Assembly: GCA_002269645.1 (NCBI GenBank)
Contig: NIVC01001189.1
Location: forward strand, 186,001-250,000
Reading direction: 5' to 3'
DNA: 64,000 bases
Source of the DNA: Macrostomum lignano
Taxonomy: Eukaryota
In this document: in pieces, positions 3,161 to 56,263 of the stretch
How positions within the stretch are numbered: the first letter of the stretch is position 1
How the letters are laid out: the number at the start of each line of letters is the position of its first letter
Notes under the pieces: model-generated
Databases searched by the model: none
What the model was told of the DNA's origin: nothing
The model's input: the letters and a program-made list of their open reading frames with translations, nothing else
Made by a program: the position numbers and the translations under genes

Positions 3161-4850
3161 AACCTTGCGTATTGCGGTTCTGCAATAAGTGATTGATAGC
3201 GAATAGTAAGAGTTCTGAGAAAATAAGAATCAAAGAAGTGTTTTCTATGTAAATTCCTTTTACGAAGTAAGAGTGAAATAGACTGAAGCATATACAGTAC
3301 ATACTATTGAGAAGCAGCAGTATTGAGTAGTAAGAGAATACGAAGTAGATCTAAAGTGATACGTGTAAGAATAACTGGAGGCTGTGACCCTCTGATCTTG
3401 GTAACACCCAAGGACTTGCAAACTTCATGAAATACATATACCAGTAAGCCAAAATACCACTCAGGCCAAATTATTAAATAGAATGCTACCAGAATAACAG
3501 AATGCTACCAGAATAACAGAGGAGTAAAATCTTTCAGGGCTAACAGTTTTCTAAGAATAATACTCAGACTAAATACGCAGACAAAATACTTAGACCTATT
3601 CTAATAAAAATTCTTATACTTATTCTAAGATTAATAATCTCATAATTTATTAATAGAATAGTCTTGGTGGCAGCTACCAACATTTATAAAAATAGGAGTT
3701 TAGCCCTTTGACAACTTTATTGACAGCTATGGAATCATCTGAAGAGATAGAAGAATCAGCCCTTTGACAACTTGGTTGCAGCAGTGGGATAATTTCAGTG
3801 AGAGCAATTACGCCTTTGACATATCCAATGTCTTTTTAGCTTTTTTATCTATTATCTATTGATAACAATAAATCTAATATAGCCAGAATAGCCTAAAACT
3901 TAGCAAAAATACCAAATAAGTCAGCTTTGGGCCTAAAATATATAGGAAAAATATATTAAAAAAACATTTTTGCTCTTATCATTATAATCAATAATTTTAA
4001 TTGCTTCTTATTATTACATAAGATATAATTTAATATATTTAAAGTTGCTTACTAACAAAGGGCAACAAAGCTAACCTATTGAAAAAAAGTGTGAAAAATG
4101 TATGAGAGATTTATTCTGTTTTCTCTTGTTCATAATTGCTTTTTATTGTATGTAATTCCATTGCAAAGTTATTTATTTGTAAAAAAACCAGTGTAGGCAA
4201 GTCATAGGACTTTTATTAAAGTCCTTTTCTAAGTCATATATTCCAAACAACTAGCTAACCAGGGCTAGAGCTATGCATTTTTGGGAGTATTGTTTTTACT
4301 CTTAGTCCTTGGTTCTAAACTTATGGTTAAAAGTTGAAAAGTGAAGACACTATCAATTTTTCACTTTTGCATATATATAATATGCAGCATTGGCTTTTTT
4401 TATATTTCATAGTATTAATATTAAGCTCCTTTGAAGTTTTCCAGGCTACAATGTGTTCTCACAAACCATTCCTTCTTGCCATACCACCAAAGGGGTCTAT
4501 CTGAAAAGTGCAGCAATTAGACAATCGCAAAATGGCATATTTTTCAATAGGGATACAAAAGAAAAGATTAGTCTGACTCTGATTGATCTGTTTGTGCCTG
4601 TCTGCCTATATGATATTGTGCATAAATTACGCATCCTATTGTACAGTGAGGAAGTAAAGAATACTTGCAATAGTTTAACCTATCACTCATTAAATCTCAG
4701 TTATTGAGCGCCCAATATTACTAAATATGGGATTTAGATATACATTCCTGTAGCCATATCCGTACCTACAGTCAGTGGATCTCTACTATTAAGTGATACA
4801 ATAAGTTTTATTGATTAATTTGCAGTGCTTGTGCCAGCCAACCAGCAGCT

Positions 4851-6418
4851 ATGCGCCGCATTTATATTGGCAACTTGTCATCGCGCGCAACCAAGCGCGA
4901 TATTGCTAAGTTTTTCCATCGCTACGGCCCGCTGGAGGATATCCTGCTGCGTGACGGCTTTGGCTTCGTACAGCTGAGCTCCTCAACTGACGCCGAAGAT
5001 GCTGTTGACTATCTGAACGGCCGGGACCTGTGCGGCAGCCGGGTGTCGCTGGAGATGGCCAGGTCGGAGCGCCGTGGCGGCCGCGATCGCTATGGTCCGC
5101 CAACGCGCACCAGGTACCTACTTTTAGTAGTATTATAACTGTTTTTATTTTTATTCTGCCACAACCAGCGCTGAGTCAATTCTGCTGACTCCTGAGCATG
5201 TAGAAGCGGGCAATTACTGTACAAGGTGTGCCCCCATACACACGCCCATTCAGTGCGTACAGTGGCCCTGACTTATAATCGCCAGGCATGTACAGTGCCT
5301 TAGGGAGATTGGCCGAGCACAACCCCAAATTAATGTGTAGATACCATTGAATGGCTCCGCCCCTTATTAATTTATTAATTTGTCATAGAACCGTTCTCTT
5401 AAAAGTTCGGCAAGTTCCAATCTATGCAGTACCATATTAATTTGGAGACGGCCCCCAACCTGGCCGCTGTACACTTCGGGTATTGTCTCGTCGCTGGTTG
5501 CGGGCTTTTGTCGCCTTGATTTGCGGCAGCACTCATAGCGGCCCCTGCAGGTAATTAACTAACCTGAATGTAGAGCCACAGGCACGTAAAACTCGCGGTT
5601 ATCACGTAATAATCAATGCTGTACAAAGCGACGAAAAACCATGTTTTGAGTGATTTGAGTCAGGGGAAAAATGAGTGAAACCTAAATTGAAACTCAATAC
5701 ACTATAGCTTTCTTGAAACCTGTCGCAAATGCCCTGGGCCTTATTGACGTATTTATGTCGCTAAGAATACTGCAAAAATCGCCAATTCAGGCACCGCCTG
5801 GTTGTCAAGAACCTGGGCTCCGACGTCAAGTGGCAGGACCTTAAAGACCTGGTTCGCCGCGCCGGCGAGGTCACCTTCGCTGACGTACACCGACCTGTTC
5901 GAGGCGAAGGCATCGTTGAATTTGAGAGTCGTGACGATATGCGCCGGGCGCTAAAGCAGTACGACGGATTCGAGTGGCACGGCCGCCGGCTGCGCCTGTC
6001 TGTTGACGGCGCCGACGACTCGCGACGGTCGCGCCGGTCCCGGTCTAGGTCCCGGTCCAGGTCCAGGTCCCGATCTAGATCCCGTTCTCGCACCCGTTCT
6101 CGGTCGCGCTCGCGCCGGTCCAAGTCCAGGTCCCGGTCTAGGGACCGCTCGAAGTCCCGGTCGGTGTCTAGGTCCCGGTCCCAGTCCCGATCACGTTCTC
6201 GTTCCAGGTCGCGCTCGCCGATAAATAACAACGACAAGGCCAAGGCTAGGTCGGCGTCCCGGTCCAAGTCCAAGTCTCGGTCTCCGTCCCGCTCGCGCTC
6301 CAATTCCCCCGGGTCGCGCCGTTCCCGCAGCGGCTCGCCCGGCGCCCGACGCGACAATAACGGCGCCGCTGCCGAGCGCCGGTCCCGAAGCCGCAGCGAC
6401 TCCAGAGGCTCGCGCTGA
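4851..6418 (+). CDS. SRSF6: SR splicing factor, SRSF4/5/6 (B52/SRp55) class, 296 aa, two exons
   Basis: Exon 1 is 4851-5113 (RRM1; donor CAG|GTACCT). Exon 2 is 5791-6418 (acceptor TTCAG|; RRM2 with KWQDLKD, then an RS domain). The 891 nt are in frame. The symbol names the family; the exact orthologue is unresolved. Confidence 0.93.
5430..5550 (+). other. Candidate poison cassette exon in the SR gene intron
   Basis: Acceptor TATGCAG| at 5429 and donor CAG|GTAATT at 5551. The exon is 121 nt with an in-frame TAG at 5536-5538. Confidence 0.45.
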
Positions 6419-9400
6419 TGTGGCGGCTAACAATGACTATGGAGAGCGGCAGCGGATGGCCCGGGCTAATTGCAGACTCCTGGTGGGCCCAGATTCGCCG
6501 CCTGCCAAGCCAGCTCCCAGTATGTTTAGCCATTGTTATTGCCTGTCCTGTTGTTTTCTCTGTTTATCAATTAAGTTCGGGCCTGTTAAAAATTCTTATT
6601 TATCCGTTGTGTCTCCCTGATATTTATTTTGTGGCTGTTGTGTGTTTTCTTGCTGTCGCTGCTGCTGCTGCTGTTTCTTTTTAAAATCGGAATTTTCTGT
6701 TAGAAATTAACGTAAAAAAGCAAACGGTTTTCAGTTGTTAGGAAAGCAAACCCATGTTGTGTCCGTGTTTTAGGCTATCCCAGCAGGAGCAGCGGCTTCG
6801 GTGTTAATCTGTTCCGTATTTTGCATACACAATAACATCTTACTAAACCGCCGATCGTCCCTGAAATGCAAATTTCTGCCGTGTTTTTACCAGCCTGTTG
6901 GGGGTAATTCAAATGCAGCACACCGAGCAAGTAACGGGACATTAATTTAAACTCTGCTACGGTTCTCCTACTACGAGTAGTGTTATACGTAAAATCATTA
7001 ATTCCTCACTAGTTTGTCATTTCTGCTTGGTCAATTTGTTCTTTTGTAAAGCTTGTAAAGCTCGAAAAATGTTAATTAACTTTTTTATCAAATTTTTTTA
7101 TTGCTGGCCTCTTATAATTGCTATAACAACACTGAACGCAACCTAAATCCATCAGTCGATATGTGAGGAAGTGTCGACTGGCGATTCATAATTTCCTTTT
7201 TATTGACCGTGTTAGAAACCACAAGTTCTCTGTAAACAAGCTGTCCCCCTGTTCAACACCTTTATGGGTTCGCTGACCAGTTATTTTTAATAGCAAACAT
7301 ACCTTAATAATTAATAAGCTATCCGGGCAACGTAGTTGGCTAAGCTCCAACTGATATAATATTTTAATAGCATGCGCGTCATTAGCCTGCATTATTATTA
7401 ATTGCTGCTTTATCTACGCAATAATTTCTTTGTTTCTCTCACTCTTTCTGTCCATTTTCGATCAGCCCCCGGGGCCAGCCGACCCGCCGGTCCCAGTGCT
7501 GTGAGAGGGAGCTGAGCTGATCCGGCGCTGTGCTGAGCTGAGCCAAACCAATGGTGCCTTGGTGCTACACACCATGCGGGCAGGCCTAAGGTGTCTACAA
7601 TTAGCAGGCGGAGATCTACATGCAACCTGGGTAACCAGGGTGACTGCGTGCATTGTGCAGTGTGGTGTGTTTGTCTACTGATAGAGCTGATTGCAAAGTG
7701 TCCGCAACCTGAAAAGTACATAAAAAGTGGCAAAGCATTCAGTAGAATTAGCATAGCATATAATACTCTTAGTAACGCGTACCGCACCATTATTAATGCT
7801 GAAAACCCTAATTAGATAACGAAGAGCTGGCTTTTGAGATGAGAGATCGGCGATTGCTTTACCTCCGTTCGGTAAGATAGATTGAATGTAATTCACACCG
7901 AAATGAGAAATAATTTAATAACAAAGTACGGGTATTTGCAGCTTAACATAATGTAGACGTTTTGACAGCTTTAATAGCTGGCTTAGCAAGTCCTCATTTT
8001 GCACAATTTTGAATTCCGTACCATTTAATAAATTAAAGTAAAGAATTGCCGTGAAAGATACTTTTAGGTAGTAGCAACGTTTTGAAGTCTAAAATTTGAT
8101 AGGTAAAAAAATCTGTTGGGTTATGCTGTTGCTCAGTATTGTTACGGTTGTCGAACTCCTAAAATCAACATTTAGAAGTCGGTGCGTTGCTCCGCGTAAG
8201 AGAGCTACATTTAATTTGTGCCCTGCAACTGTGCCAACTGACCCGAGGCTGCGAGAGCGACCCCGGGTTGCCTGCAGGAGCCGCAGACTAGAGGGTCAGT
8301 CGAGCTGTGAGGCCGTGTCTGTCTACTGCTGCTAATTAGTACAGGTAGATCACGTTGGATATGCGTAATTTACTGACAGTAGTATATGATCCAGCTGGGC
8401 AATATTGTAGATAGATGCTATTATTGCCGGAACAAGTGATGCTTGTGACGTAGTAATGAAGCACTGATTAGTTGGGCATAGCTGTATACAGTAGGTGAAC
8501 CTGGTCGCGGCTGAATGGAACCGAGAGAGCCCGGCAGTCTTCCGAAGGGGAATGTTCGGGGAATCTGGTTCAATTCGAGAGCGGCAATGGGACAACAGTG
8601 TCGCTCCCCGGCCGTTAGGACGAAACATTGGAAGCCGTATCGCGCCCGTTGCTACAAGCGTACAAGGCCAATTTGATTCTATTGTGAGTAGATTACCCGT
8701 GAAAATGTGTTAAACCTCGTGTAAATATAAACAACCGCAATCACTTAAGTCTTGGGATGAGAACTGTAAGCGTCACAGGACGCGTCCCAATGCTAGCCAG
8801 TTGACGAAACGCCGAGTGCGCGCCTGTCTTCGCCGGCAGGGTGCCCGCCGAAGTCGCCGACAGTGCAACAGGTCGGTTGGGTGACCAATCTTGAAGCTGA
8901 CAAGCAGCAGGCCAGCATGCGCCTCGTCCACCTGCTGTTCGAGCGAGTCTTCTCAGCGTCCAAGTCTTGGCCACGATGTGGAGTAACGCACCGCCTTCTG
9001 TCGGTCTGGTATGGCCTCTGACTGCAGGACCAACCTCACAGAAGGAAACGCAGTCCGCAGCCCAGGCAAGCCAGTAATGATGACAGAGATTCTCGAAAGC
9101 GTCTAGGAAACAGCTACCGCCGAGGTAGACGAACTGCTGACATCGCGGAAGTTCCGTCGCCTGTCCGTCAGCGCCTGTTTAAGACGCCTAGAATTCACTC
9201 CTTAAGGAAGCTTACACTGGCATCTCTCTTATTTGTAATTAGTACTTTCGACACACTAATAGAGTACTAGAAAAACAGTTTAATAGCACTGATTTATCTA
9301 CTTATGATGTACTTTTATGTTGTAATTGTGAGTTCTTTGCTGTTGTATGGGATATTTATTTAGGAATCTTTACCCCGGCGAGAGGCATTTCTGCCCATTC

Positions 9401-9429
9401 CGCCGACTCCCATGAGCAGGCACACAAGC

Positions 9430-9680
9430 GCGTGGATACGTACGCAGTCATACGCACAGGCACACACTCACACAGGAGTGTACAGCGGCCCTAACTTAAT
9501 TTATCATTAGGCATGTACACTTCACTGTGTCTTGGGTACTGGCCCTCAAGGCCGTTAATTGCACGAGCAGAGCCAAGCCGAAGTTCCAATTTAGCCCCAA
9601 AAATTAATGCGACTGCACTTGGAATCGAGCCTGGGCCGCTGGCACATGAGAGCTGCGCACTGGCTCTGGGGGGGGGGGGG
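9430..9680 (-). mobile_element. tRNA-derived SINE-like family 2, copy 1
   Basis: B-box-like GGCTCGATTCC on the minus strand. The body is shared with copies at about 5250, 22030 and 26960. Confidence 0.55.
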
Positions 9681-9912
9681 CACGGACCCCCTTTGTACAA
9701 TATGAAATCTTACAATTAAGATTATTTTTTCCTTTCACAAGTAGACGTATATGGAGCAATTACTGAATTATTGCCATAAAATAATTGGATTGTCAATATT
9801 GACGCAAGATATAAATCGAGGATTAGCCGCAGCACTTATTGCGTGCAGATTTTTTCAGGCTCGGTCGCTTTTTATACGAAAAAAAGGTAGTTATATAGAT
9901 AGATTTCGTGTT

Positions 9913-9926: not shown

Positions 9927-10081
9927 TTAATCGTGTGTTATTATGAATTTGAAATATAAGCTTAGTCGCTCAGATTCTGTTGGCGCTTATTTTTATGTTA
10001 TGATAGTGAAGTGAGCTCCGCGAATTTGACACCTATGAAAAAATTTATGGCTAGTCTTTTTATTGCTTTACGTGTCTGTAT

Positions 10082-10792
10082 TGTAGGGCACCTTTATTAT
10101 TCTCTAAATCCCACCACAATCACCAAGTTGTTGTAGGGGGGGGGGGTTTGGCTGTAATTCTAGAATTTTATTATATTAGCTTATTGGATTCGTTATGAAC
10201 TACTAAAATACGGTGTTACTGAGGCAAGGCTATGGGCTTTCACGTAAGCACGGATTGCCCTGGTAGCGCGCAGTGCCCGAGCGGCAAGACACTGTTCAGC
10301 TAGGGGGAGAGGGGGGGTGACTAAGTCCTAAAGCAGCGTCCTCCAATGGATCGAGTTTGCCCGGTGAGTTTCAATTTCCTCTTACGGATTTTCTTTTGTC
10401 ATATACGACTTTCCATTGGTTGTTCAGTTCGAACAGTTTATTTGGATATTCCTCCTCTTTCTATTGGCTGATTACGCCCCTGCTCTTTGCTAGTACGCTA
10501 TTGGCTCTTCGACAATTCGTCTCTTGCTCTTGGTAATTTCTACCTCTAGTCCTATGAGCATTCGCTCTTAGTTTTTAGCAAATGAAGGAAGGTTTGGAAC
10601 GCTTCTTCAATTTTATAGGCAATTCGCCTATGAACCAAAAGATCTAAAACTTCGGTTGCCTCTCTGGGCACAAAATTCGCTTCTATTTATACTAAAATTG
10701 GGGTGGGGAACAAGACGCGTTTAAACAAAGTTCTAAAAATATACGTTTCCATAGTAAAGGCGGGAATTTAAAACTTGGTCTCTCTCAACTGG
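10082..10792 (-). repeat. 3' LTR (711 bp)
   Basis: Identical by eye to 18958-19668 except CCACCACAAT versus CCACCGCAAT. A short purine tract AGGGAAG (10793-10799, minus) adjoins it as a weak PPT. Confidence 0.95.
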
Positions 10793-11294
10793 CTTCCCTA
10801 AGGATAATTGTCGAATGGAAGAAAAATAAAAAGTGAGAAAATTATTCCATTTGATACAATGAGTAGTCTATAACGCACGCCTAACAAAAAATGCAACATA
10901 ATGTGAGTATTAATGGAATATAAAAGCGCGAAATTAGGTGCACAGAAAATGTGACAGTCATAAACTAAATACGGAAAGTGTGAACTAAATATGGATGCAC
11001 GCACAAAGTTCAAACAGTTATGGTGAATAAAACGGTGTAGATGATAAAACAAATGTGAAGTGGTTTTAATGAGTAAGCAAAAACACAAAGTTAGACAGTA
11101 GTAATTGGATAAGCAATTTTATAGGTAGCACAATAAAAAAATGGAGCACAAATGCCAGCAAATATATGAATAAGCAGAAGGCTAAGCAATTTTATTAAAG
11201 GATGAACACACACTACTAATTTGTAAAATTTTTACGGTAAATTGCAGAGGCAGAATTATATTGCAAATGTTAATATTTGGCAAAGTCACCTGTA

Positions 11295-11483
11295 TTAGTT
11301 CATATTAAACTCCTCTGGTAGCCCACGCTCGTCCGTCCAGCCGAGAAGATCTCCCATCCAGCGTACTTCGATACGCAGGAGGATCCCGTAGTACGGGTGG
11401 CCCGCCTGCTGAAGCGCGTGGAGAGTGTAGGCGACCGCTCGTCGCCATGCCGCAATTGCTTGCTCGGGCGTGTAGCTGCTCAT
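11295..11483 (-). CDS. Retrotransposon ORF4, 62 aa, unknown function
   Basis: The ATG at 11483-11481 overlaps the ORF3 stop (TGATG). The frame is open from about 11570. The peptide has ordinary globular composition (MSSYTPEQAIAAWRRAVAYTLH...). Confidence 0.5.
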   Translation of the reverse strand: MSSYTPEQAIAAWRRAVAYTLHALQQAGHPYYGILLRIEVRWMGDLLGWTDERGLPEEFNMN

Positions 11484-12853
11484 CAACATCTGTAGTACTG
11501 GCCGAATATGCGCCCGTTGCGGCAGAGCGCGGTCAAGACGCACGTTGGCATCAAATAAGCCTTGATGAGGGCTATCATTCGCTTAAAGTGCGCATGGCGG
11601 CCTTCGGGTATTTCAGCCAGAGCCCGGCTCAAGTTGGCACCGAAGTCATTGACATCAGCCGGACGAGGGAACTGGCTCGATTGTGGTTGAACTTGAAATT
11701 GCGCCTGGTTCGCGTCCATGCCGCAAGCAGCGTTTGATGATGGAGGCACCGTTAATATCGGCTGCGGTGGTTGCTGTGACTGTGGCGCTGGCGACGGCTG
11801 CTGCGGCTGTATCGGCTGCGCTGGCGGCGGCGGAGGCTGAGGTACTGGCGGTGGTTGCAGCACTTGCATCGGCTGCGGCAGCTGCTGCGGCGGCTGCTGC
11901 GCTGGCGTCGATTGCTGCGGCGGCTGCTTCACTGGCAGCTGACGGCGCCGCTGCTGCTGTTGGCGATGAGGCTGTGGCGGTGGTGGCGGCGGTGGCATCG
12001 GCTGCTGTGACGGCGGCTGCTGTGGCTGCGGCGCTGGCGTCGGCTGCTGTGAGTGCGGCGCTGGCGTCAGCTGCTGCGGGGGCTGCTGTGACAGCTGCTG
12101 AGCTGGCGGCAGCTGCTGTGTTGGCGCTGACTGCGGCGGACGACGCTGAGGGCGCTTCCGCGGAGCAGGCTGCCGCTGGCGGCTTGAGTGTGCTGTCGCC
12201 TGCGTCGGCTGTCGCTCTTGCAGCGGGGTCCGCGGCAGAATCCGCCGTACAGCCGGGCCGAGCCGCATCATTATAGTGGAGCGCGCCTCTGTTGGACGCC
12301 GAGCCATTGCCGTGGCGCTCGCCTCTGGTGCCTTCGCAGCCTGTCGCCGCAAAATAGCAGCCCGATTCTCAGCTGCCTGTGGCACCGGAATCTTTGAAGG
12401 GGCTGCTCGCTTAGGCTGTGTGGGCGCTTGCACTGGCGAGCCGACCCTTTTTACGACAGATCGCAGCCGGCCTCCAGGCTTCGATGGTTGCGTCGGCTGT
12501 CGCTCGGGCGCCTCCAGCTCTTGACCATCATTGATGGGCGGCCGTTTTGGGACCGTACTGCGATTGTCAACTTCTGCAGTTGCTGCCGTGGTGGCGCTCG
12601 TGCCAGCTGCCTCACTACTGCCAGTGTCGGCTGTTGCTTCCGTGTTTGCCATGCCGGCCGCTCTGCTGTCTATTTCGACTGTTGTGCTTGTCACTTCGAC
12701 TGGTGCGTTAGCCATTTCGGCTGCTGCATTCGCCCTTTCGGCTGGTTCGTTGGCCCTATCGGCCGTAGTACTATCAAGTCCATCGAACGTATCAAATGGA
12801 TCCTCAATATCGAGTAATTCTCTAAGCCACGAAAAATCCTCTTCTTCACTCAT
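11483..12853 (-). CDS. Retrotransposon ORF3, 456 aa, non-env; acidic N-terminus, P/Q-rich middle, BESS-like motif
   Basis: Long ATG-initiated ORF between pol and the 3' LTR on the element strand. No signal peptide or TM helix is visible. Confidence 0.8.
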   Translation of the reverse strand: MSEEEDFSWLRELLDIEDPFDTFDGLDSTTADRANEPAERANAAAEMANAPVEVTSTTVEIDSRAAGMANTEATADTGSSEAAGTSATTAATAEVDNRSTVPKRPPINDGQELEAPERQPTQPSKPGGRLRSVVKRVGSPVQAPTQPKRAAPSKIPVPQAAENRAAILRRQAAKAPEASATAMARRPTEARSTIMMRLGPAVRRILPRTPLQERQPTQATAHSSRQRQPAPRKRPQRRPPQSAPTQQLPPAQQLSQQPPQQLTPAPHSQQPTPAPQPQQPPSQQPMPPPPPPPQPHRQQQQRRRQLPVKQPPQQSTPAQQPPQQLPQPMQVLQPPPVPQPPPPPAQPIQPQQPSPAPQSQQPPQPILTVPPSSNAACGMDANQAQFQVQPQSSQFPRPADVNDFGANLSRALAEIPEGRHAHFKRMIALIKAYLMPTCVLTALCRNGRIFGQYYRC

Positions 12854-12918
12854 TGCTCTTCCGAAATTCTCGGTCTCTCTGGAAATCTGTGGGGCTTCCG
12901 GGGCGTCAGGGGTCTTGC

Positions 12919-13013
12919 TTATATAGGCCTCTCCGGGGAGGGGTCCCGGGAGAGGGATCGTGGCCTCCGATTTGCTTAGACAAGCAAATTTCCAAATAAC
13001 GCGCTCTCATTGG
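12919..13013 (-). promoter_or_regulatory. Internal Pol II promoter for ORF3 (CCAAT and TATA boxes)
   Basis: On the minus strand, AGCCAATGAG (CCAAT at 13013-13009) and TATATAA (12925-12919) lie about 85 bp apart, about 65 nt upstream of the ORF3 ATG. Confidence 0.55.
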
Positions 13014-13099
13014 CTCTCCGCACTCAATTCCTCTCTTCCAATGGGATTGCTTCCTCACGCCTTCGCGCCTGTGCGCGCCTTCCTTCTGCTTCCCGTCTC

Positions 13100-16000
13100 T
13101 CAATAGGTCAGATTGGGCAATAGGCGCCACACTGTAATCAGCCTTTTCAGATAGCACGAGCATCTGTTCGGGGGCTTGATCTGACTACGAGTGTTGTACC
13201 TCTTCTCGGGCCTAGCCGCCTCTTCGGTAATCTCGTTTGCCTCTTGCTCAGTTTTGAGCTCTTCTCTTTCTTCCTCTTGCATTGGCTCTGCTCCCTCCAC
13301 CTCACTGCCTTCTTCCTCAAAGATCTCACTATCTGACTCACTTGATACTTCATCCTCGCTTTCACTTTCTGGCTCTGAATTATCATTGTCTCGGAGATTG
13401 CATTGCCAATTCAGGCGGTCTTCATCTTCTGATTCTTCTTCTTCTTCTATCTCTTCCCTCCGGGGGTGGCTTCCCTTAGCTTGCGCTTCTGCGGTGCCGC
13501 GCTGGCTTCCCTTAACTTTAGGCTCTCTCGTAGCTTTATCTGGCTGGCTGGCGGCAATCTCTTTAACTGAATTTGGCACTACTGCTAAATTATCTCTATG
13601 CACTAACAACTCTTTTCCTATTAACTTTCCTTCTTCCTCCTTCTGTACTTTAAATACTACTGCTGAAATTTGCTTCAAAACTCGGTATGCTGATCTTCGC
13701 TGTCTATGGAATTTATGCGACTCCTCGTTATCTAGCTGCGGGTTATTAATAAGCACTAAACTTCCTAACGGTACTCGTTTTGGCTGTTTGCTAGTTTCAG
13801 CAGCGGTCTGTCTTTGGTTTATCACCTTCTCCAATTTCTCTTTTACGAGTTTCTGGGCGACATTTAGTCTTTCGGCATGTTCGGCAACATAGGATGGATA
13901 GCCTGCGTAGTGCTTTGGGTCCTTGATCTGATTGTCCATAGGTAACACGGCTTCCCTTCCGAATAACAGGAAATGGGGTGTGAAACCTGTTGTCTGATTG
14001 ACACTGGTTCGGACAGCAACTAACGCAGCGGGAATCATTAGATCCCAGTTATTGTGGTCTTTCTTGATAAGGCAGGTAATAATAGACTTTATCTGTTTAT
14101 TGAACCTTTCTACCAAGCCGTTGCTCTGGGCATGGTAGGGGGTGGTGAATGTCTGCTTGACATTATAGAGTTCACAGAAAGCCTTGAACTGTCTGCTGGA
14201 GAATGTTTTACCATTATCAGTATGAATCCAGTGGCACTGTCCGTACTCACTGAAGATTCTCTCCTGCAGGATTTTAATGACAGTGTCTGATTTCTGGTTG
14301 CGGATTGGGAAGGCAAAGGGGTATCGCGTGGTGCTATCAACCACTGTGAGCACATATCGATGCCCTCTTCTACTCTGCTTGGATATTGGCCCGATTATGT
14401 CAATATGGAGGCGGTGAAATGGCTCGCTAATAGGGAAGGATTGGATGGGGGCTTGGACCTTGTGTCCTCGTTTGCTTTCCAGGCAGGGTATACATTCAGA
14501 GATGTACTTCTCAACTGCCGTGGTCAGACCGGGTCTCCAAAATCTCTCGCGGACTTTCTGGATGGTCTTGTCTCTGCCTAAGTGTCCAGCTAGTGGGCTA
14601 TCGTGGAGATCGCCAAGAACTAGCCTGTCTAATGACTCTGGCAGGACAACTTTCCAATTTTCGTCCTCTTTCACGATTAACAATTCGTTTTCAATTCTCA
14701 TAGCCTCATAGGCTTTGCACATTTGCTTTAACAGCGGGGGGTCGATTCTCTGGGGCACTGGGATTTCAACTTTCGCACATTTCCATTGCACGAGGGTTCG
14801 GATCGAGGGGTCCTCTCTCTGGGCATTAACAATTTGGTCACGCTTCAGCGGGACGGGGAGGTAGTCAGTCAAGAGCTTATCGACTCTTCGCACCTCGCTC
14901 TCTTGTTCGTGTCTGGACATTACAGGGATTTGGCTCGATTGCGCAAGGCTCAAGCTCAGTGGCTCCAAATTGTTATCCTGAACACAATTACAAGGGGCAG
15001 GGGGCTGGGGGACTGAATGGCACGGGGGCTGGGCGGCTAAATGGTTCAGCGAGAGGGGGGTTGGGGCAGGGCAATCGGGTATTGAGTCCTCAACTGGCGG
15101 CTGGGCCTGGCTTGTACAGCTGTCCTCTGCCTTTGCCTTCTGACTCAGTTCGGCCAATTCGGCTCTGTTGGGGAAGGGAAATTCTGGGTTGGCATTATCG
15201 CCTTGAATCACCAATTCAGTGTTTGATTTATCATTCTGGCCTGTTTCGGCTGTCTCAGCGGGTCTCCTGGACAAGCTGTCCGCGTTGGTATGCTTGGCGC
15301 CACTTCTGTGTTCAATGTCAAATTGGAACTCAGTCAGGCGCTCAATCCAACGTCCTAAGATACCCTGGGCTTCAGTCTGCCGTAGCAACCAGAGGATTGC
15401 TTTATGGTCAGTTCGGGCAAGAAATCTTTTTCCGATCAAATAGAAACGAAAGTGTCTCATAGCGTCTACTAGTGCTAACAACTCTTTTCGAGTGATAGGG
15501 TAGCGCTTTTCCGACTCTTTCATTGCGCGGCTAAAATACGCAATAGGCCTTTCGACACCATCGGACTGGATCTGGCCTAAACAGGCCCCAATCCGTCCTT
15601 CACTGGCATCGGTATCCAGAACCATTTTGACATTTTCGTCATCTACGAATTCAGGATACGCAAGCACCTCTGTTGACATCATGCGCTGTTTTAATGATTC
15701 AAAAGCCTTATCATGCACATCTGTCCACTTTGCTGAGAAATTTTGCACTCCCTTTCGGGTGAGCTGGAACAGTGGGTGCGCGGCTTCAGCATAGTTTTTT
15801 ACGAATCGACTGTAATAATTACACAGTCCTAGAAAGCTGCGTAGCTCTTTCACCTCTTTCGGTTTGGGCCAGCTTTTGATCGCTTCGATCTTTGCTTCGT
15901 CAGTTCGAATACCATCTCTACCTATCACGTGGCCTAAATACTTCAGCTCTCTATGGAACAAATTGCACTTTTTCGCTCTAAGCTTCAATCCGGCATTGAT

Positions 16001-17904
16001 TAGTCTCTGGAAAACTTCTTTCAAATGGGACAAATGGTCTTCGAACTGCTTTGAATAAGTGACAATATCGTCAATATAGGACATAGCAAACTTGTGCTGA
16101 ATTCCAGCGAGTACTAAGTTCATTAGCCTCTGAAAGGTACCGGGGGCATTGGATAATCCCTGCGCCATCACCTGGTACTCAAACTGTCCTCTAGTCAGGG
16201 TGGAGAAAGCTGTCATGAACTTATGTTCTTCCTTAATTGGGACCTGCCAATAGCCTGAGTTAAGATCGAGGCTGCTGAAGAATTGGCTTCCTGTGAGATT
16301 AGAGAAGGTTTCTTGGATGTTTGGGAGGGGGTAGGGGAAATAGTTCACTCGCGAGTTTAACACTCGGAAATCGCTGACAATGCGAATGGTGCCGTCTTTC
16401 TTTGGCACGATAACTAGTGGGGTGGAATAGGTGGAATAACAGGGACGGATGAGATTTTTCGCTAGCATATCGTCTAGCTGGGCGTCAACCTGCTTTTGGA
16501 GATGGGGAGGAATTCGGCGGGTAGGGATTCTCACAGGGGTCTCGTCTTTCAGAGAAATTTCGTGGGTCACTAAATGAGTTAGCCCCATATCGAGATCATT
16601 TTGCGAGAAAGCTTCTCGGTGTTCTTTTACTAATGCTACTACTGCTGCTCTCTGTTCAGTAGTCAATTCAGGACCAATGCTAATTTCACTCACCCACTCT
16701 TCTTCAGTGGCTTGAACTTGATTGACACGGGCTGAGTCTTGTACTTCGGCTGCTGATTGCTGATCTGATGTCGGCACTGACCAATAGATCAGATCTTTGG
16801 CCTTCATGGGCTTAGCGAGCCCTACCAATGCAGATTTGGGCAACTTGACTTCGACGGGGTGTCGATTCACAATTTCGACGACTGCGGCGCCCTGCTGCAT
16901 GGTGACCAGAGTCGGGATCATTTCGATCGTTAGCTCTTTGGCTCTTACGCCATCACCAATTGTTTCTATGGTCATTGGAGCGCCATAGTTAGCTTCGGCA
17001 TTCTTCGCCAGTCTAACTGGAATGCGCAGTGCGCTATTCGCAGGGATAATTGCCTTTTCTTGAGTGTACACTCTGCAGACTCGTACAGGCATGTGCGTGT
17101 ACTGCATAGGTATGCAGGCTCCTTCTTTCAGGATCAGCATCCCTTTTGTCAGATGAATGCTTTCGCACTGCTCAAGAAAGAATTCCATTCCCAAAATGTT
17201 GTCACATTCGTGGCCACATAATAGGAACGTTATTTCAATTCGAATATCTCCGAACTCAACAGCAACGGAAATTTCTCCTTCTAGCTGAACTGTAGCTCCG
17301 TCAAAAGTAGATACTCTTCTACTTGTACTTTTAATTTGCTCAGGCTTGAAAATTTTAGACCAGACTGACTTACTCAGGAAATTATTGCTAGCTCCAGTAT
17401 CTAGCAGGAAGTCAATCTCTTGGCGATTGATGTTGCCTACTACGATTGCTTCGTAGCTCTTGGGGCTGATTAGCTCGAGTTTGGCATTGGCTGGAGTCTT
17501 CTTGGATTTGCGGCGGCGGTTTCGACGCGACTTCTTGGGCTTGACTGTCATCGGCGTGATGACTGAGGTCTCGGCGGTTGACACATTGGGCGAAGTAAGC
17601 AATTGGGATGCTGCGGCAGCAGATGCGGGTGCTGCAGCAGCGGGTGCTGATACTGTAGACATAGATGATGCAGGCATAGTAGACGCAGTTGGTGCAGACA
17701 TAGTGGACGCAGTTGGTGCATTTCGCATAGATACAGGGTGCATTTTCGCATTGGGTGCATAAGCATTTCGCTTGCGCCTTTTTACAAGTTGCCATCCTCC
17801 GTTTGCTGTATCACAAGCGGGTTGGCGGGGATTTTGGGAGGCCTGCATTTCGCTTGGGGCTCTGCTTGAGGGACGTGGCCTCGACTTCCGACCCTCGCCA
17901 TTCA
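13100..17904 (-). CDS. pol: Pol polyprotein (protease, RT, RNase H, integrase), reached by -1 frameshift from gag
   Basis: Motifs: LLDTGAS protease; YIDD RT; DTDAS...ELLAL...TDH...ADSLSR RNase H; HHCC zinc finger; HIDIIGP...HTDNG...VERFN DDE core. The frame is open upstream of the ATG at 17848 back to the slippery site. Confidence 0.96.
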
Positions 17905-18858
17905 GTTTCCCTGATTCGGGTTTCTTGGCGGAAATCGGTGCTGGTTGGGTCTAGCCGATGGTGGCTGAGACTGCGCTTGGAACCTGGGGCGCTGGTTCAT
18001 TAGCGGGGGTGGCTGTGGCTGATACGCCCTGGGCTGATATCGCACAGGCTGGGGCTGAGGAGCCATTCGTACAGGCTGAGGCTGTACTATAGCAGGCTGA
18101 TAATGCACTGGCTGAGTAGCCATTGGCTGATACACCTGCACCTTCTCTTTGCGGCTCTCCGCCTGTAGCTCCTGAATGAGTTTTCGCTGCTTTTCCAGCT
18201 CCTCTTTCTGCTTCTTGACAATTTCTGTCAGACTCTCCTTCTCTCCTTCTTCATCTTTCATCACTCTTACTCCGTTCTTGTGAGACATGTGCCAAGCAGC
18301 TTCAATGCGCCTCAACATGCGCCTAGCTTCCTGCAGGCTAGCTGGCTGCGCAAAAATCAGTTTCTCCCTTGTATCTGAGGGGATTCTGACACCTTTTATG
18401 AATTGTTCTACCACCTCCTCTTCTCGTTGCTCGGCATTCATGTTTTGGAATGCTCGGCTTGACAGCTCTATCAGGGCATCCGCGAACATGTCGGTCGCCT
18501 CATTTCTTCCCTGCATCCTTCCCCTAAATTCTTCACGGAACTCGGAAGCACTTCCTAGCCTACCAAATCTTTCTACAAGCCTATCCTTGAACTCCTCGTA
18601 GGTCAGCTCTTCTGGCAAATTCAATCGCTGAACTGCAGCGAAAGCAGTGGACAAGTCCAAATTAGCTACTAACTCAGTTTTCCTATTGGCTACGTCTATT
18701 CCTTCGGCGTCACATCGCTGATCAAAGGCTACCAGCCAGATTCGGATGTCTTGGCTGGGGGTATACTTCTGAATTTTAATATGTCTCATGGGCCCTAGTT
18801 CTAATCTATTCCTCAACTCTTCTGCTAATAGTCCAATAGCATCGTTGATTGCTGCCAT
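17902..18858 (-). CDS. gag: Gag, 318 aa (Ty3/Gypsy capsid-like; no CCHC knuckle)
   Basis: Capsid-style motifs WL..F...C, TYEEFKDRLVERFG, QGRNE...FADAL and EQFIKG, then a coiled coil and a Q/P-rich tail. Confidence 0.9.
   Translation of the reverse strand: MAAINDAIGLLAEELRNRLELGPMRHIKIQKYTPSQDIRIWLVAFDQRCDAEGIDVANRKTELVANLDLSTAFAAVQRLNLPEELTYEEFKDRLVERFGRLGSASEFREEFRGRMQGRNEATDMFADALIELSSRAFQNMNAEQREEEVVEQFIKGVRIPSDTREKLIFAQPASLQEARRMLRRIEAAWHMSHKNGVRVMKDEEGEKESLTEIVKKQKEELEKQRKLIQELQAESRKEKVQVYQPMATQPVHYQPAIVQPQPVRMAPQPQPVRYQPRAYQPQPPPLMNQRPRFQAQSQPPSARPNQHRFPPRNPNQGN
17905..17911 (-). promoter_or_regulatory. -1 ribosomal frameshift heptamer G GGA AAC
   Basis: Sits directly before the gag TGA in X XXY YYZ phase. 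The -1 frame reads GKLNGEGRKSRPRPSSRAPSE and joins MQASQ of pol. Confidence 0.85.
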
Positions 18859-18939: not shown

Positions 18940-18951
18940 CCGCTGCCACCA
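18940..18951 (-). promoter_or_regulatory. Primer binding site TGGTGGCAGCGG (tRNA-Leu type)
   Basis: 12 nt complementary to the 3' end of metazoan tRNA-Leu AAG/TAG (...CCGCTGCCACCA), recalled from known sequences. Adjacent to the 5' LTR. Confidence 0.8.
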
Positions 18952-18957
18952 AGTTAT

Positions 18958-19668
18958 TGTAGGGCACCTTTATTATTCTCTAAATCCCACCGCAATCACC
19001 AAGTTGTTGTAGGGGGGGGGGGTTTGGCTGTAATTCTAGAATTTTATTATATTAGCTTATTGGATTCGTTATGAACTACTAAAATACGGTGTTACTGAGG
19101 CAAGGCTATGGGCTTTCACGTAAGCACGGATTGCCCTGGTAGCGCGCAGTGCCCGAGCGGCAAGACACTGTTCAGCTAGGGGGAGAGGGGGGGTGACTAA
19201 GTCCTAAAGCAGCGTCCTCCAATGGATCGAGTTTGCCCGGTGAGTTTCAATTTCCTCTTACGGATTTTCTTTTGTCATATACGACTTTCCATTGGTTGTT
19301 CAGTTCGAACAGTTTATTTGGATATTCCTCCTCTTTCTATTGGCTGATTACGCCCCTGCTCTTTGCTAGTACGCTATTGGCTCTTCGACAATTCGTCTCT
19401 TGCTCTTGGTAATTTCTACCTCTAGTCCTATGAGCATTCGCTCTTAGTTTTTAGCAAATGAAGGAAGGTTTGGAACGCTTCTTCAATTTTATAGGCAATT
19501 CGCCTATGAACCAAAAGATCTAAAACTTCGGTTGCCTCTCTGGGCACAAAATTCGCTTCTATTTATACTAAAATTGGGGTGGGGAACAAGACGCGTTTAA
19601 ACAAAGTTCTAAAAATATACGTTTCCATAGTAAAGGCGGGAATTTAAAACTTGGTCTCTCTCAACTGG
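18958..19668 (-). repeat. 5' LTR (711 bp)
   Basis: Direct repeat of 10082-10792. Confidence 0.95.
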
Positions 19669-20797
19669 GTATACAAAACTATATACACTACAAGGTGCTG
19701 CGAACGGGCAATACAGCAATAAAAAGCTAATGAATGAAAAAAATCCCGACATCATGACAGTTAAATAAAGTTTCGTACCCAAATTATTCGAGCTATTTTT
19801 TGGTATCAATATATGAAGCCTAACTCGGTTGTATTCTGGCTTGTAGTCTTTGATGCATTTTACTTGAATTTCCATTTTATCTCTATCTTCTTCAGTCGTT
19901 AGGTAAAGCACTTTCTTCTGACCGGTCCCCTAGCGTTTAGATATGAAATCCCAGGCGCAACCGCACAAACAGAAAGGAAACTAAATAGGTTTAATTACGA
20001 TCGCCGTATTTTTTCTGCAGTAAAGATATTGCATATTGATATTAAGTCTGCGTTCTAAATTCTATTCATGTACGTTGCGGACGTGCCGAAAGTCAAGTCT
20101 ATTTTGCTGTGCAAAGTCAACACAGACTGTAAACGGACTTGTCGTCTTCTTACTAGGTGATTTTTCACAGCATTTGGTTTAAACTTTGTCTTAAATAAAA
20201 ACCAAGGCTCCCAGCTAGACTCCCAAGATACTCAGAAAACTTCACGAGCATGCTCTCGAATATTTTTACCAGCTATCTCATCCAATGACATCGGATTTTT
20301 GTGCATGGATCGTGTCCCTGAATCCAACATCGTTAAGCCTTTCGCATGCCTATATAAGTGACGGCTACAGCGCTACAGATACTTTCAAGTTCAACTGTAT
20401 CGAGTGGCACAGTTAAATCATCTGATTCTTTTCTTCTGATGAAAGTCCGACACATCTGTAAAAGTTTATTGGGTCAGGTTGCTAGCCTGTACTTCTAGGT
20501 AAAAAATCACAATAACGGTGGCGCTATATAAAAAAATACGACTAAGCAATCATAATCTTGGATAAAAGGAATAAATATTAAATATATAGGCTATCTTCTA
20601 ATTGTATATCAGATCTGCAATATGATACGCCAATGACGGCAGTCTCTGAACTGCTCTTAAGCTAGTGCATAGTCCGGTACTTGCACGAGCGCATGCGAGA
20701 CTAGATGCACTGTGCAGAAAGGAGTGGCAGGATGTCCGGTTGGAAAACTGTGGGAGATTTTTAACAGCGCATGCGCAATAGCGCAACAAATCAAAAG

Positions 20798-31669: not shown

Positions 31670-34600
31670 CTACTGGACGCAGCAGGCCCGCGAGTTTTCC
31701 ACCCGGTTGACTCGCCACTGGCTCACCAGCTGCGCGATCTTCATGCCGGCGGCCAGAGACGGGTTGGTCTCGTCCCCGGCCCCGCCGCCTCCGGCCAGTC
31801 CTTGTCGCTCCTTGTACACGGCCTCCTCCTGCCGGCTGGGCAGCTCGTTGACCACCCGCACCAGGGTTGCGTCTGACGGGTCAGCGATCGCCAGCAGCGT
31901 CAGGGAGCCATCGATGCCGCCGCAGGCGATGCCGCGACCGTCAAGGGCGCTGACCATCGACTTGATCTCGGCGTGCACTTTGAAGTCGGCCAGCAGGGCG
32001 GCGTCCTCGACTCGGATTAGCCGGATAGTCTTTCTGCCGCTGTGAAAGTGCGCAATGTACTTGTCGCCCTCCGTGAATATTGTGATGCTGGGAAACACTC
32101 CGTCAGAAGTCTGCCGCCGAAGCACCCACTTGGAGTTCTGCGGCTTCCGCAAGTCGATCAGCTTCACGCCGCCAACCAGAGGTGAGAACAGGCCGAAGCG
32201 GCCGTCGGCAGTGCGCAGCCCTTGCCACTCGGGCGCGGAGCGCACCAGCTGCTTCTTGCGCGAATCCCAGAGCTGGCCTTTCTCCTCATCGATGAAAGCG
32301 ATCCAGCCCGGCTTGTCCGGCAGGGAGACAATTTGCTTCACGGCATTGGTGCCCTCCAGCTTTGGCTTTGTCTTCTCAACGAATGCGCCAGTCGCGGCGT
32401 TATAATAGGACACTATGAACTTCTCCTTGGCAGTGCAGGGTACCAACAGCTGCATGCTGTCGATGGAGAATATTGGCGGCACAAAGTCTACAAAGTAGTA
32501 TTCAAATTCATATAGCAGCTGGCTGCTGGGCACTGCGTAGCAGCAGATTGCAGCCGTCTTAGAGGCGCGCTTCTCCATGCTAACGGCCAGGACTTTTGAG
32601 CCGTCCGGCGTCATCTCCAGGGCTTCGACTGGCCCGAAGTCGCGTGACAAGAGTGACCCGCCGTCCGGCAGGGACCAGAAGACGAGGCGCCGGCTGTCGG
32701 CCGACACGGCCACGCTGGCATCGTGAGAGATGAGCGCCTTGAAGATGACAGCGTTTCCACTAGCCGAAAAAGTTTTCAACAAAACGCCCCGCTGTACGTC
32801 CCACAGTCCCAGGTAGGTGCGAGCCACCGTGAGCGCCGTGCAGCCATCCTTCGACAAGGAGATGTAGTCTATCGGCTTCTCCATGTGGTGAATGTTGAAC
32901 ACGCGCTCCATGATATTGTTAAAGTTCCACACCTTAATGGTCTTGTCCATGGATGAGGAGACAACGCAATTCAGTGCCACGGAATTGGTCATGGAGACAA
33001 TGCGACCGAAATGGGCGTCCAGCTTCTTCATCAGAGTGCCGGTCTTGCACGAGTAGGCCATGACTAGGTGGCGGACGGCGGAGATCATGAACTCATTTCC
33101 GCGACTGAAGATCAGGAGATTCTGCATTGGATTCTTATTCGGTATGTTCTGATAGCCTTTGGGCAGCGGAGCCCTGGCGCACGGACAGCCTTGCGAAGTG
33201 AGATGCCAAATTTTGAACTCAGTAGAGCATATGGCTACCAGAATCGTCTCGTCATCGCTGAGGGAGAGACCGACGAACTCGTCGCTGTTCTCTATGGACG
33301 AGTCCCAGGTGTAATTGCCGGTATCCTTGCGCCTGGAGTAGCGATGAATAGTGAAGTTCATGGAGCCGGCCTCGTCCCGCTTGGGAAGGAACATGTGCTG
33401 CCTACTGTTGCCCATGGCCATGCCAGTGTGGTACTCGATGCTATTCGCCAGGTCGTGGCTAAAGTAGACGCGATACTCCGACGCCACCTTGGTGTTGACT
33501 GTGCAGAAGTAGAAATTATCGGAGCCGCGATATTCGAAGTGCACAATCTCTTCGCCGGAGTCCTGCAGCTCGCCAGTGCTGAGCAGTTCAGCGGCGTGGC
33601 TGAACTCAAACCACTGCCGAGCGGTAAAGGCCAAGCAGACATCGGTGGTCACCAGCACACCGCGCACATCCGAGTCCTTCGGTAGGTTATAGAAGCCGTG
33701 CTCCCCAGATACTAGATTGGTGAAGACTAGCTGGTTGTTGCTGGTGAAGCTGACCGCTCGTCGGTCCTCCGAGTCGATGCGCATGCCTTTGGTGATGCCC
33801 TGCAGGCCGTTGATTGGGATGTTGCGGAAGATCTCGCCAGTCTGCAGATCCCAGATTATGAACTGGTTTGACACGGACACAAGGTACTTGCTGTCGCTTG
33901 TCACCTGCATTCCGTAGCAGGCAAACTGGTGGCCCTCAAGCGAGTACTCCAACGGACCGCCAGGTGTGTACAGGTAGTGGTGCGCCGGCACCAGAGCGCA
34001 GTGGACCGGGGCCTCTCGATCGCACTCGTGTATGAGATGGCGAACCTTTTCAAAGATGGCATAATAGGGCAACAGGCGGCCGCTGATCTGCGGACCGAGC
34101 ATATTCGGGTCCTTAGTGATGATGCTGGCGGAGAGTCGGAGGCACTCGCTCAGGATGCGCGCGTTCCGGTCGCTGGTCTTTGCGATCATACTGTCCAGGT
34201 CGGACAGGAGCGCTTGCAAGGGGAAGGCGCTCAGCTTGGCGTGCAGGAACTGGTAGTTGAACAGGCACTCGCTGGCCAGCTCCGCCATCCGGCCGGATTT
34301 CAACAGTTGAAAGGGCAGCTCGCTGAGCTTGCGCAGGTTGTACCGCACAGTCTTGCCGGCCTCGTTGACGAAGCGCAACGGCTGGGGCGGCACCTTGCGA
34401 TCGCTCTCCGAATTCACATCTTTAAGGCCGAAGCGTTGCTTCTGCAGCTCGCTGTAAACGAACGGCTTGGGCACACCGGCCCACTTGCCCAGGAAGTAGT
34501 CCGCCAGGTTCGAGTGGATGCCGGACTTGAAGTTGAGATTTTTGAAGTATCGCTTCTCGCACACCTGGAAGAACTGCCGGTGGTACCAGTAAACTACGTC

Positions 34601-54895: not shown

Positions 54896-56263
54896 TCAGT
54901 TGAGCACAGCGGGAGCGGCCTGGCCGGGGCTCGTCAGCATCGCCAGTCCCGCCTTGCCTCCGTTGGTTGAGGTGCCACCGGCCGCGGCAGCTGCGGCGGC
55001 GGCGGCAGCAGCAGCGGCTGCAGCAGCGGCCGACGCTGGCTTCGGGCTGCCACCTCCACCGGACGACTTGAAAGACACCTGCAGGGTCCGGTTGCCCACT
55101 GTGTAGCCGTTGAGCGATTGAATGGCCAGCAGGGCCTCTTCGTAGTTGCTCATGGTGACAAAGCCGAAGCCGCGGCACTTGCTGGTGCTGGGATCGCGGA
55201 TCACCTTCACCGTCTGGACCGCGCCGAACGGACCAAACAGCTCCCAGAGGATGCGGTCCTCGGTCTCCGGCGCCAGGTTATAGACGAATATGCACCAACC
55301 GCCGCTGGGCGTCATTCCGCCGTTTTGAGCCACCACAGTCTGCGCCAGCAGGGCATGGTTTTGAATGCCTCCCGTGTTCGACATCAGGTCGCCAATGTTG
55401 TTCATGCCGCTGTTCATGTGGTGGCCCTGGTACGACTTGATGTAGTTGCGGGACAGAGCGGCCAGTTGCTGGATCGGGCTGGAGATTTTGGCGGCCGCTG
55501 CAGCAGCCGGTGACGGAATGTTGCACTGCTTGAGGAAGCTGTTCACCAGGCTGCTGCCCTCCTGCCTGGCAGCGCTGGGACTGTTAGCAAACTTCACCGT
55601 GATGGCCTCGCCGCCTTCTTCCGGCTCGAAACCGTTCAACCGTTTGATGGCGTCCTCTGCCTCGCTGCGCTGGTCGAACCGGATGAATGCGACGCCGCGC
55701 GACAGGCCGGTCTTGTTGTCGTACAGAATGCGCAGCGTGATGATCTTGCCGCACTGGTTGAACAGCCGCTCCAGCTCGTCCTGAGTCATCTTCTTGGGCA
55801 GGCCGCAGATGTACAGGTTGGCCCCCTTGATCGCTTCGGAGCTGGGACGGGCGAGAGACACCTTGATCGTCTTATTCTGCAGTCTCAGACCGTTCAACGT
55901 CTTGATGGCCTTGTCGGCCTCCTTGGGCTGCATGTACTTGACGAAGGCGTAGCCAAGGCTCTCTCCCGTGGTACGATCGCGCACCAGCTTGCAGCTTTCA
56001 ACCTCGCCGATGCTAGTGAAGAGGGCGCGCACGTCCTCCTGCGACATGGCCGGCGGCAGATAGTTGACGATTAGGTTGGTGCGGTTCTCTGCGGATGCGT
56101 GGTACGACGAGGCGATAGCGTTATCTTGGGACTCGTCAGATCCAGCTGGGGAGATCTTCCCAACCCGATCCCCGGCTCCTGGCAAGCAGTTCAACCTACC
56201 GCTGTCGGTGATGCCGCAGGAAGAGTTATTCGTGTCCTTTCCCAGCATATCGCTCGACGTCAT
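54896..56263 (-). CDS. elav: ELAV/Hu-family RNA-binding protein, 455 aa, three RRMs, intronless CDS
   Basis: RRM1 TNLIVNYLP...SLGYAFVKY; RRM2 ANLYICGLP...[10 protein letters not shown]; hinge; RRM3 GWCIFVYNL...CRGFGFVTM...LQVSFK. Confidence 0.96.

Follow-up and report, generated by a model that had tools for sequence, protein, structure and literature searches.

A 64,000-nucleotide stretch of the Macrostomum lignano genome (contig NIVC01001189.1, forward-strand positions 186,001 to 250,000), which we call the window and from whose first letter all coordinates are counted, contains a minus-strand Ty3/Gypsy retrotransposon that encloses an accessory gene (11295–12853, minus strand) between pol and its 3′ long terminal repeat (LTR). 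The gene is real and conserved, and it is an orphan of a Macrostomum Gypsy clade. New here are the exchange of promoter, gene, and LTR start as a module and the retention of the gene by elements that have no pol. Regulatory accessory proteins mark complex retroviruses, and little is known of them in animal Gypsy elements, for which CERV is the one export factor that our literature searches found. In a transgenic-ready flatworm, a whole, recently active clade carries an orphan candidate whose domain is well predicted and unclassified. The same searches found no description of the gene. The words "ORF" and "accessory" occur nowhere in the main text of a paper on M. lignano LTR elements (PMC12801592); its supplements 2–5 and its ref. 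16 may mention the gene.

One Reading Frame, Broken in the Window Copy

The original prediction placed a self-contained cassette here, and every landmark that it listed is present: the pol stop at 13100, a CCAAT box at 13013, TATATAA at 12925 (the sole one between 10000 and 19700), AATAAA at 11196, and a T-rich tract. It also saw two genes on the minus strand, an intact open reading frame (ORF3, 456 aa, 12853–11483) and a coupled ORF4 of 62 aa; the latter is present as a frame of 62 or 64 aa (11483 or 11489 to 11295) that overlaps ORF3 at TGATG. That division has to be given up, as three siblings (L031, L034, L035) read ORF3 and ORF4 as a single ORF of 453–535 aa. Eleven related copies were aligned to the site concerned, one alignment ending before it, and all 10 that cross it carry a frame-changing indel relative to the window at ∼11550; ORF3 is therefore not intact. 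The break (11545–11552, minus strand) is unique to the window copy, and it accounts for the final 22 codons of the window ORF3, which are off-frame, and for the TGATG overlap.

RNA contigs bear on whether the break is genuine. We had contigs of four runs from four studies (X1, X2, X6, and X10), counted as RNA because all four skip an intron in a neighbouring host gene. An X10 contig (11250–11668, gap-free) carries the window's form at the break, so the break probably reflects true variation rather than faulty assembly; an X1 contig carries the sibling-like indel. Most likely, then, the accessory gene of this copy is truly broken, though its gag and pol are open. The two LTRs differ by a single mismatch in 714 aligned bases (10116/18992). 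The element is accordingly very young, as first described.

A Selected Gene Family and the Search for Host Relatives

With ORF4 as the query, 120 of 136 candidates in the 764 Mb genome of M. lignano matched, many of them within long open frames, and a second search with a distant member as the query gave at least 150 matches, 150 of its 228 candidates having been scored. Seventy-two ten-kb loci were taken, hand-picked to span the identity range; gag or pol lies upstream of the gene in 61 and within about 8 kb upstream of none of the remaining 11 (L075, L076, L079, L082, L084, L085, L094, L096, L099, L111, and L138). The latter either are truncated or have possibly been relocated or domesticated. 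Forty-one loci have paired LTRs; they come from the match lists and are thereby biased toward intact copies. Among them 20 of 28 pol-bearing loci, and 9 of 13 that are pol-less or deleted, have an open gene, and pol (1350 aa or more) is open in 14 of the 28.

The accessory gene is under purifying selection overall. Across 14 non-independent pairs with dS of 0.05–1, drawn from 53 domains, the ratio of nonsynonymous to synonymous substitution rates (dN/dS) of the conserved domain has a median of 0.19 and a range of 0.12–0.78, with no pair above 1. A codon model over 25 elements gave 0.082 for the domain versus 0.016 for reverse transcriptase (RT), with dS near saturation. Family copies are therefore neither mostly disrupted nor evolving at a dN/dS near 1, the pattern that was named beforehand as telling against the gene, and with mostly open copies, this median, and no transmembrane (TM) segment, the original claim of a non-env accessory gene stands. 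Its suggestion of a captured host regulator finds no support: protein searches found no host family homologous to the gene, and gag or pol precedes it in 61 of the 72 loci. Several M. lignano "hypothetical proteins" in the databases are this transposon gene.

Module Exchange and Carriers without pol

Across the family, RT protein is mostly 83–100% identical to that of the window copy, and domain identity falls to about 32%. In 30 of the 38 pairs whose RT DNA is at least 94% identical, the domains are just 47–75% identical, and in 28 of these 30 the first 300 LTR bases are only 54–70% identical. The step is sharp: the window copy and L039/L042 are 90–99% identical along pol and ∼55–65% identical from the pol stop through the 3′ untranslated region (UTR). 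RT and domain trees reject each other in the approximately unbiased (AU) test (p-AU 3 × 10⁻⁵ and 4 × 10⁻⁶), a test run with 2000 replicates, below the advised number, and with some RT nodes poorly resolved. The identity drop at the pol stop, the matching LTR divergence, and the tree conflict together show that promoter, gene, UTR, and LTR start behave as one block, exchanged on gag-pol backbones that are 95–99% identical. The term cassette in the original prediction is thus apt, its boundary being the pol stop; the exchange presumably took place by template switching between co-packaged RNAs. Family-specific extra ORFs between pol and the 3′ LTR, gained and exchanged as modules, are also known from bdelloid and plant elements. 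None of those ORFs matches the Macrostomum domain: in bdelloid LTR elements the non-env ORF3s encode either enzymes that can be recognised as such or TM proteins, and the authors treat ORF3s as typically spliced (PMC5408684), and many additional plant ORFs are antisense or TM-bearing (PMC7264820).

Thirteen loci have gag and no pol match, and most of them are 5–6 kb elements with LTR pairs 94–100% identical. They keep two ORFs, a diverged gag of about 190 aa (where readable) and the accessory gene. Young elements of this kind are L104, L105, L123–L126, L130, L131, L134, L139, and L141, and one pol-less type returned 16 equal-scoring matches in the genome search. We note that their diverged gag carries a Cys/His knuckle, that L126 has its accessory gene in common with the pol-bearing L127, and that an unrelated 701-aa ORF with a Cys-rich motif at its start is inserted in another pol-less element (L136:4421-6523). 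Natural alleles on near-identical gag-pol, together with pol-less carriers, make specificity testable without engineering whole elements.

Two explanations of the gene's function start from these observations. As a particle or competition factor, the product would bind Gag or genomic RNA and bias packaging or exclude rival families, for which it speaks that pol-less elements keep exactly a short diverged gag and the accessory gene. The gene is exchanged independently of gag-pol, however, and the short motifs of its product (basic KRP patches, RLG, and RS, described below) look nuclear, which leaves this role improbable. VANC is an anti-silencing factor, and a comparable sequence-specific factor, or an antagonist of the piRNA pathway, would have its alleles maintained in a conflict with its host. 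From such a conflict one would expect numerous, strongly diverged alleles on almost identical gag-pol, as well as retention by abundant pol-less elements and the dN/dS of 0.64–0.78 among L134/L135/L137. Against it stand the purifying selection that prevails overall and the failure of our searches to find a chromatin-reader or nuclease fold; we consider it unlikely.

A Disordered Arm and a Five-Helix Domain

The conserved C-terminal domain (11298–11662, minus strand) is split by the frame break in the window copy, and it was modelled from a natural copy (L034) with 27 aligned natural domains. The 124-aa model has five helices and a predicted local distance difference test score (pLDDT) of 91; in a full-length model about 330 residues are disordered, bar short helices. 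The domain has a net charge of 0 to +9 (mean +4), and the family ORFs contain 1–6 Cys, 13–37% Pro plus Gln, and basic KRP patches.

No known family accounts for the domain. Pfam gave 0 families for ORF3 and ORF4, Pfam and NCBIfam gave just scattered weak matches for the 27 domains, and the best PDB sequence match had an E of 0.011. A Foldseek comparison, which the original prediction had proposed, returned 0 matches at E ≤ 0.001 when the domain model was run against PDB and BFVD. With VIA-align over 48,161 chains, none reached a Z of 8, the best being 7.4 (94 aligned residues, root-mean-square deviation 3.2). The absence of a fold match is no proof of a new fold. Among 1.84 billion representatives there were 7 matches, 5 from named M. 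lignano entries, 1 unnamed, and 1 from a beetle, and a search of longer proteins found nothing beyond these. The beetle match (P0007) is probably spurious, covering 38 profile positions within a 7917-aa repeat protein. The named homologues, like a host protein with a 100% match, indicate M. lignano.

Other candidates were set aside as well. ESM Atlas features of PAP/OAS1 type (0.90–0.91, residues 385–456) came from a query that included the off-frame tail; these and the low-recognition hints of bacterial hypothetical proteins and transposases disagreed with each other and drew no support from the fold. A resemblance to the BESS motif has no Pfam support.

Third ORFs in this position are env-like in schistosome elements (PMC2582038), and multi-domain Burro elements have been described in planarians (PMC6431247). 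That the present gene is a degenerate env or a membrane fusogen is suggested just by where it lies, between pol and the 3′ LTR. By a hydropathy scan, 0 of 35 family ORFs reach a TM-level segment (highest 19-residue value 1.11), and the gene is for this reason not env; the scan likewise bears out the earlier statement that signal peptide and TM helix are absent. The accessory ORF has no signal-like N-terminus, family N-termini being acidic; Cys number just 1–6; and the model, a small soluble helical domain with the rest disordered, displays no Cys-rich ectodomain or fusion-protein fold. The family and fold searches gave no clear match to an env or glycoprotein, and we regard this explanation as barely credible.

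Several short motifs punctuate the arm. An acidic hydrophobic, LxxLL-like helix lies at the N-terminus (12800–12853, minus strand; modelled helix 8–13), acidic ORF starts having been a selection rule for the expression set. An R-x-P-T-R/Q-P motif (12485–12505, minus strand) occurs in 19 of 24 families (shuffle mean 0.29), S-V-V in 16, Q-A-x-A-P in 14, and an RSRSP-like motif in 7, with patterns drawn from the same sequences in which they were counted. Finally, a Φ-x-x-R-L-G motif of the ALYREF-ligand type (residues 194–199; 12254–12274, minus strand) is found in its strict form in 7 of 12 subclade A/C families, that of the window among them (shuffle mean 0.07), and is retained in L038/L039/L042 despite a cassette just 55–66% identical to that of the window.

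A Likely Internal Promoter

The accessory gene is likely driven by an internal CCAAT/TATA promoter, as judged from conserved motif positions. In the window (minus strand) the predicted promoter region holds an NF-Y type AGCCAAT box (13009–13015, 160 nt before the ATG), a GC-rich imperfect inverted repeat (12928–12955) directly before the TATA box (12919–12925), and an initiator-like pyrimidine-A motif (12883–12894) about 35 nt past the latter, with a predicted start near 12890; by eye, several relatives have a similar initiator-like motif at a similar distance. We examined 35 of the 72 loci, those with an open ORF of acidic start, which form 14 families at <70% upstream identity. TATA at −130 to −60 is found in 6 of the 14 (shuffle mean 0.95), RRCCAAT at −235 to −130 in 6 (0.70), and both in 5 (0.05), counts that 0 of 500 shuffles reached. 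Among the 24 subclade A/B loci, 16 have a canonical TATA at −71 to −111 and 7 a GATA variant at −90 to −100.

Some observations weigh against this promoter. The six subclade C representatives do not show the CCAAT/TATA signature in the windows tested, and the 11 C loci have no TATA or GATA at that distance. Both the motif patterns and the windows for the promoter were chosen once the sequences had been seen, and the families share ancestry; the shuffle controls therefore make the motifs look stronger than is warranted. Contigs cover the accessory gene in all four RNA runs, one of them (X1) spanning 12254–13478, but the promoter zone is itself covered by X1 and X2 contigs, which is what genomic RNA would give. 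Since contigs cannot show transcript starts, we infer the promoter from the conserved motifs; the claim that the gene has its own promoter is supported by a positionally conserved CCAAT/TATA signature in subclades A/B, and not in subclade C. Two features of the contigs were not used as evidence: summed depth in X1, higher in the cassette than in pol, because contig depth cannot rank parts, and the gap that X6 leaves at 12877–13033, which X1 and X2 cover.

The TATA/CCAAT motifs might instead be no promoter at all and the gene be expressed from an LTR transcript by splicing or spliced-leader (SL) trans-splicing. In the window, pyrimidine runs ending in AG come just ahead of the ATG, the host trans-splices (a leader-like loose end is seen on a neighbouring SR gene in 3 of 4 runs), and subclade C has no promoter signature. 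Yet the pyrimidine run ends in AG in just some families, which suits a promoter element better than a splice acceptor; the TATA spacing is conserved; and among the joints and loose ends listed, no joint or leader leads into the ORF. This mode of expression is rather unlikely in our judgment.

The internal promoter has precedents. In Oikopleura Tor3b/Tor4b, an ORF3 after pol is driven by an internal promoter, which 5′ rapid amplification of cDNA ends placed either within pol or between pol and ORF3 (PMC4402516). Like these, the Macrostomum elements have a third ORF after pol, and they conserve core-promoter elements in subclades A/B; unlike them, they encode a soluble, mostly disordered product where Tor ORF3 is a membrane glycoprotein, Env, and their promoter is deduced from conservation.

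The cassette's own polyA signal, also claimed originally, fares worse. Its AATAAA (11191–11196, minus strand) is not conserved and probably not functional: AATAAA is present in 1 of 10 family 3′ UTRs (4 of the 14 families were dropped, having no polypurine tract (PPT) match to define the end), 22% of shuffles of the window family's UTR hold one, and contigs from two studies (X1 and X6) read through it into the LTR. Because it is not conserved, transcripts likely end in the 3′ LTR, which would be the 3′ end of both the genomic and the shorter RNA; a minor isoform may end before the LTR at AATAAA. The 3′ untranslated stretch (10800–11294, minus strand) is T-rich, with 37–47% T in 21 loci and 44% in sibling L031.

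A Possible Export Adaptor and Its Closest Rival

For the function of the gene, the reading that we tentatively favour is a nuclear, TREX-recruiting adaptor of ICP27/CERV-like type that serves the element's own unspliced RNA. A subgenomic mRNA would fairly probably start near 12890 and end in the 3′ LTR. The disordered arm of its product would bind host factors through short motifs, ALYREF through Φ-x-x-R-L-G; the acidic N-terminal helix might bind UAP56 or a coactivator; and the basic helical domain would recognise a sequence, particular to each family, in the RNA or LTR of the element. Such recognition would account for the joint divergence and joint transfer of gene and LTR start, and for the retention of a separate gene copy by elements without pol.

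The Φ-x-x-R-L-G pattern is a ligand class of the ALYREF RNA recognition motif (RRM) (PMC13370473, a preprint), and the site by which HSV-1 ICP27 binds ALYREF has been described together with its contacts (PMC3017119). A host ALYREF (L146, found through PF13865) keeps the ICP27-contacting residues, and a further host PF13865 protein (L149) bears the same RLG-type motif. The N-terminal motif of ALYREF binds UAP56, and by eye the N-termini of subclade B products such as that of L104 look like the host's version of it. In ICP27 and in ORF57 of herpesvirus saimiri, an arm precedes a C-terminal folded domain, and the Macrostomum product is arranged likewise, its disordered arm, with the short R-L-G site, coming before such a domain. 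It differs in having no homology to either, a domain of ∼124 aa without a match to the ICP27 fold, and no motif in most of subclade B. CERV, encoded by C. elegans Cer1, is an export factor made from a spliced five-exon mRNA that shares gag exons, with H, M, and G domains (PMC10309623). CERV and the Macrostomum product are alike as accessory proteins of LTR retrotransposons without outside homologues, in combining folded and flexible parts (in CERV, folded domains joined by flexible linkers), and in the export role that is proposed here for the latter. The Macrostomum gene differs in being a single exon after pol with a single helical domain, and no sequence or fold link between them was found.

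Several results count against an export adaptor. In the fold searches the domain resembles neither ICP27, CERV, and Rev nor any RNA-binding fold. The acidic helix and P/Q-rich arm are equally typical of activation domains, and no splice that would call for an export factor was seen in the RNA contigs. The RLG motif occurs in just 1 of 18 subclade B loci and is missing from L074, L078, and L093, so the case for export depends on one short motif that a whole subclade lacks. A complex of the host ALYREF RRM with a 35-aa RLG segment, predicted without alignments, scored 0.22 against a mark of 0.34, which speaks neither for nor against binding.

The foremost rival is a transactivator. The internal promoter of foamy viruses drives tas, and a Tas-like protein would use its helical domain to bind family-specific LTR DNA, with the acidic LxxLL-like helix and the P/Q-rich arm serving for activation. 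The acidic amphipathic N-terminus (acidic starts being a selection rule) and the 13–37% P+Q agree with this, and the acidic helix fits adaptor and transactivator alike. Like tas, the gene follows pol and has an internal promoter, here a predicted one, in front of it, and the 54–70% identity of LTR starts in 28 of the 30 pairs with diverged domains would follow from LTR binding; that co-variation is expected anyway, since gene and LTR are physically linked. Fold searches found no DNA-binding fold, and the RLG and RSRSP motifs would be left unexplained. In a weak test over 16 families, exact 8–10-mers common to the internal promoter and its own LTR were not above those shared with other LTRs (p 0.25–0.38). 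A transactivator seems to us possible but somewhat doubtful, and the export adaptor is slightly better supported. Foamy viruses, whose internal promoter and tas/bel-2 are described in PMC7828637, also resemble the Macrostomum elements in an accessory gene between structural genes and the 3′ LTR and in extra upstream PPT-like tracts; they differ as retroviruses with env, and the Macrostomum protein has no similarity to Tas that we could find.

Extending the export adaptor to the clade, one may imagine that these Gypsy elements evolved a Rev/ICP27-like adaptor with an unclassified helical domain on a promoter-bearing cassette; that dozens of allelic specificity types, each for its own LTR or RNA alone, are shuffled over a shared gag-pol; and that pol-less parasites carry the cassette, licensing their own expression and borrowing enzymes. 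So full a picture is unlikely to be right in every part.

The Host Element and Its Surroundings

The element has what is expected of a Ty3/Gypsy LTR retrotransposon, namely TG…CA LTRs, primer-binding site (PBS), PPT, and target-site duplication, all on the minus strand. Its 5′ LTR (18958–19663, 706 nt, TG…CA) has ends that agree with those of its relatives. The PBS (18940–18951) shows the motif that follows the 5′ LTR of nearly all relatives; we take it to be of the tRNA-Leu type, and ARAGORN found no tRNA in the window. An open gag of 318 aa (17902–18858; Retrotrans_gag below cut-off, E 0.027) ends with a slippery heptamer (17905–17911), a likely −1 frameshift site into pol. The open pol (13100–17848, 1582 aa from the first ATG) has the order protease, RT, RNase H, integrase, so that the Gmr1-type order, with integrase before RT, is absent from this element. 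The Gypsy clades given for M. lignano are Mag, CsRN1, Gmr1/Osvaldo, and Mdg3/Micropia (PMC12801592). The PPT lies at 10788–10799, followed by the 3′ LTR (10082–10787), inside which are three AATAAA (10442, 10172, and 10098), and a 4-bp target-site duplication (10078–10081, partner 19669–19672), 4-bp duplications being found in relatives too.

Between this duplication and the 5′ LTR are five extra bases (19664–19668) that repeat the last bases of the 3′ PPT region, which suggests imprecise removal of the plus-strand primer before integration. A second PBS-like stretch with an LTR-end-like motif before it lies near the end of each LTR (19001–18990 and 10125–10114), which looks as though the LTR had absorbed an earlier LTR end together with PBS and leader; the sole LTR mismatch falls inside this stretch. 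Within the 3′ end of pol the 10-base PPT core recurs twice without a mismatch (13503–13512 and 13467–13476), and these copies may be central PPTs.

Elsewhere in the window, a host SR-type splicing-factor gene (4825–6418, plus strand) has one intron, 5110–5788 being skipped in 4 of 4 runs, and its spliced-leader-like loose end is at 4825. In each of the four RNA runs the summed contig depth is very high over a short segment, 9400–9700, which is probably a highly repeated, transcribed short element. A three-RRM ORF of 455 aa (54896–56263, minus strand) is presumably ELAV/Hu-like. The exons of a large WD40-repeat gene, which we take to be NWD-like, lie at 31670–34852 and 40330–42639 (minus strand), with low-complexity ORFs apparently nested in its introns.

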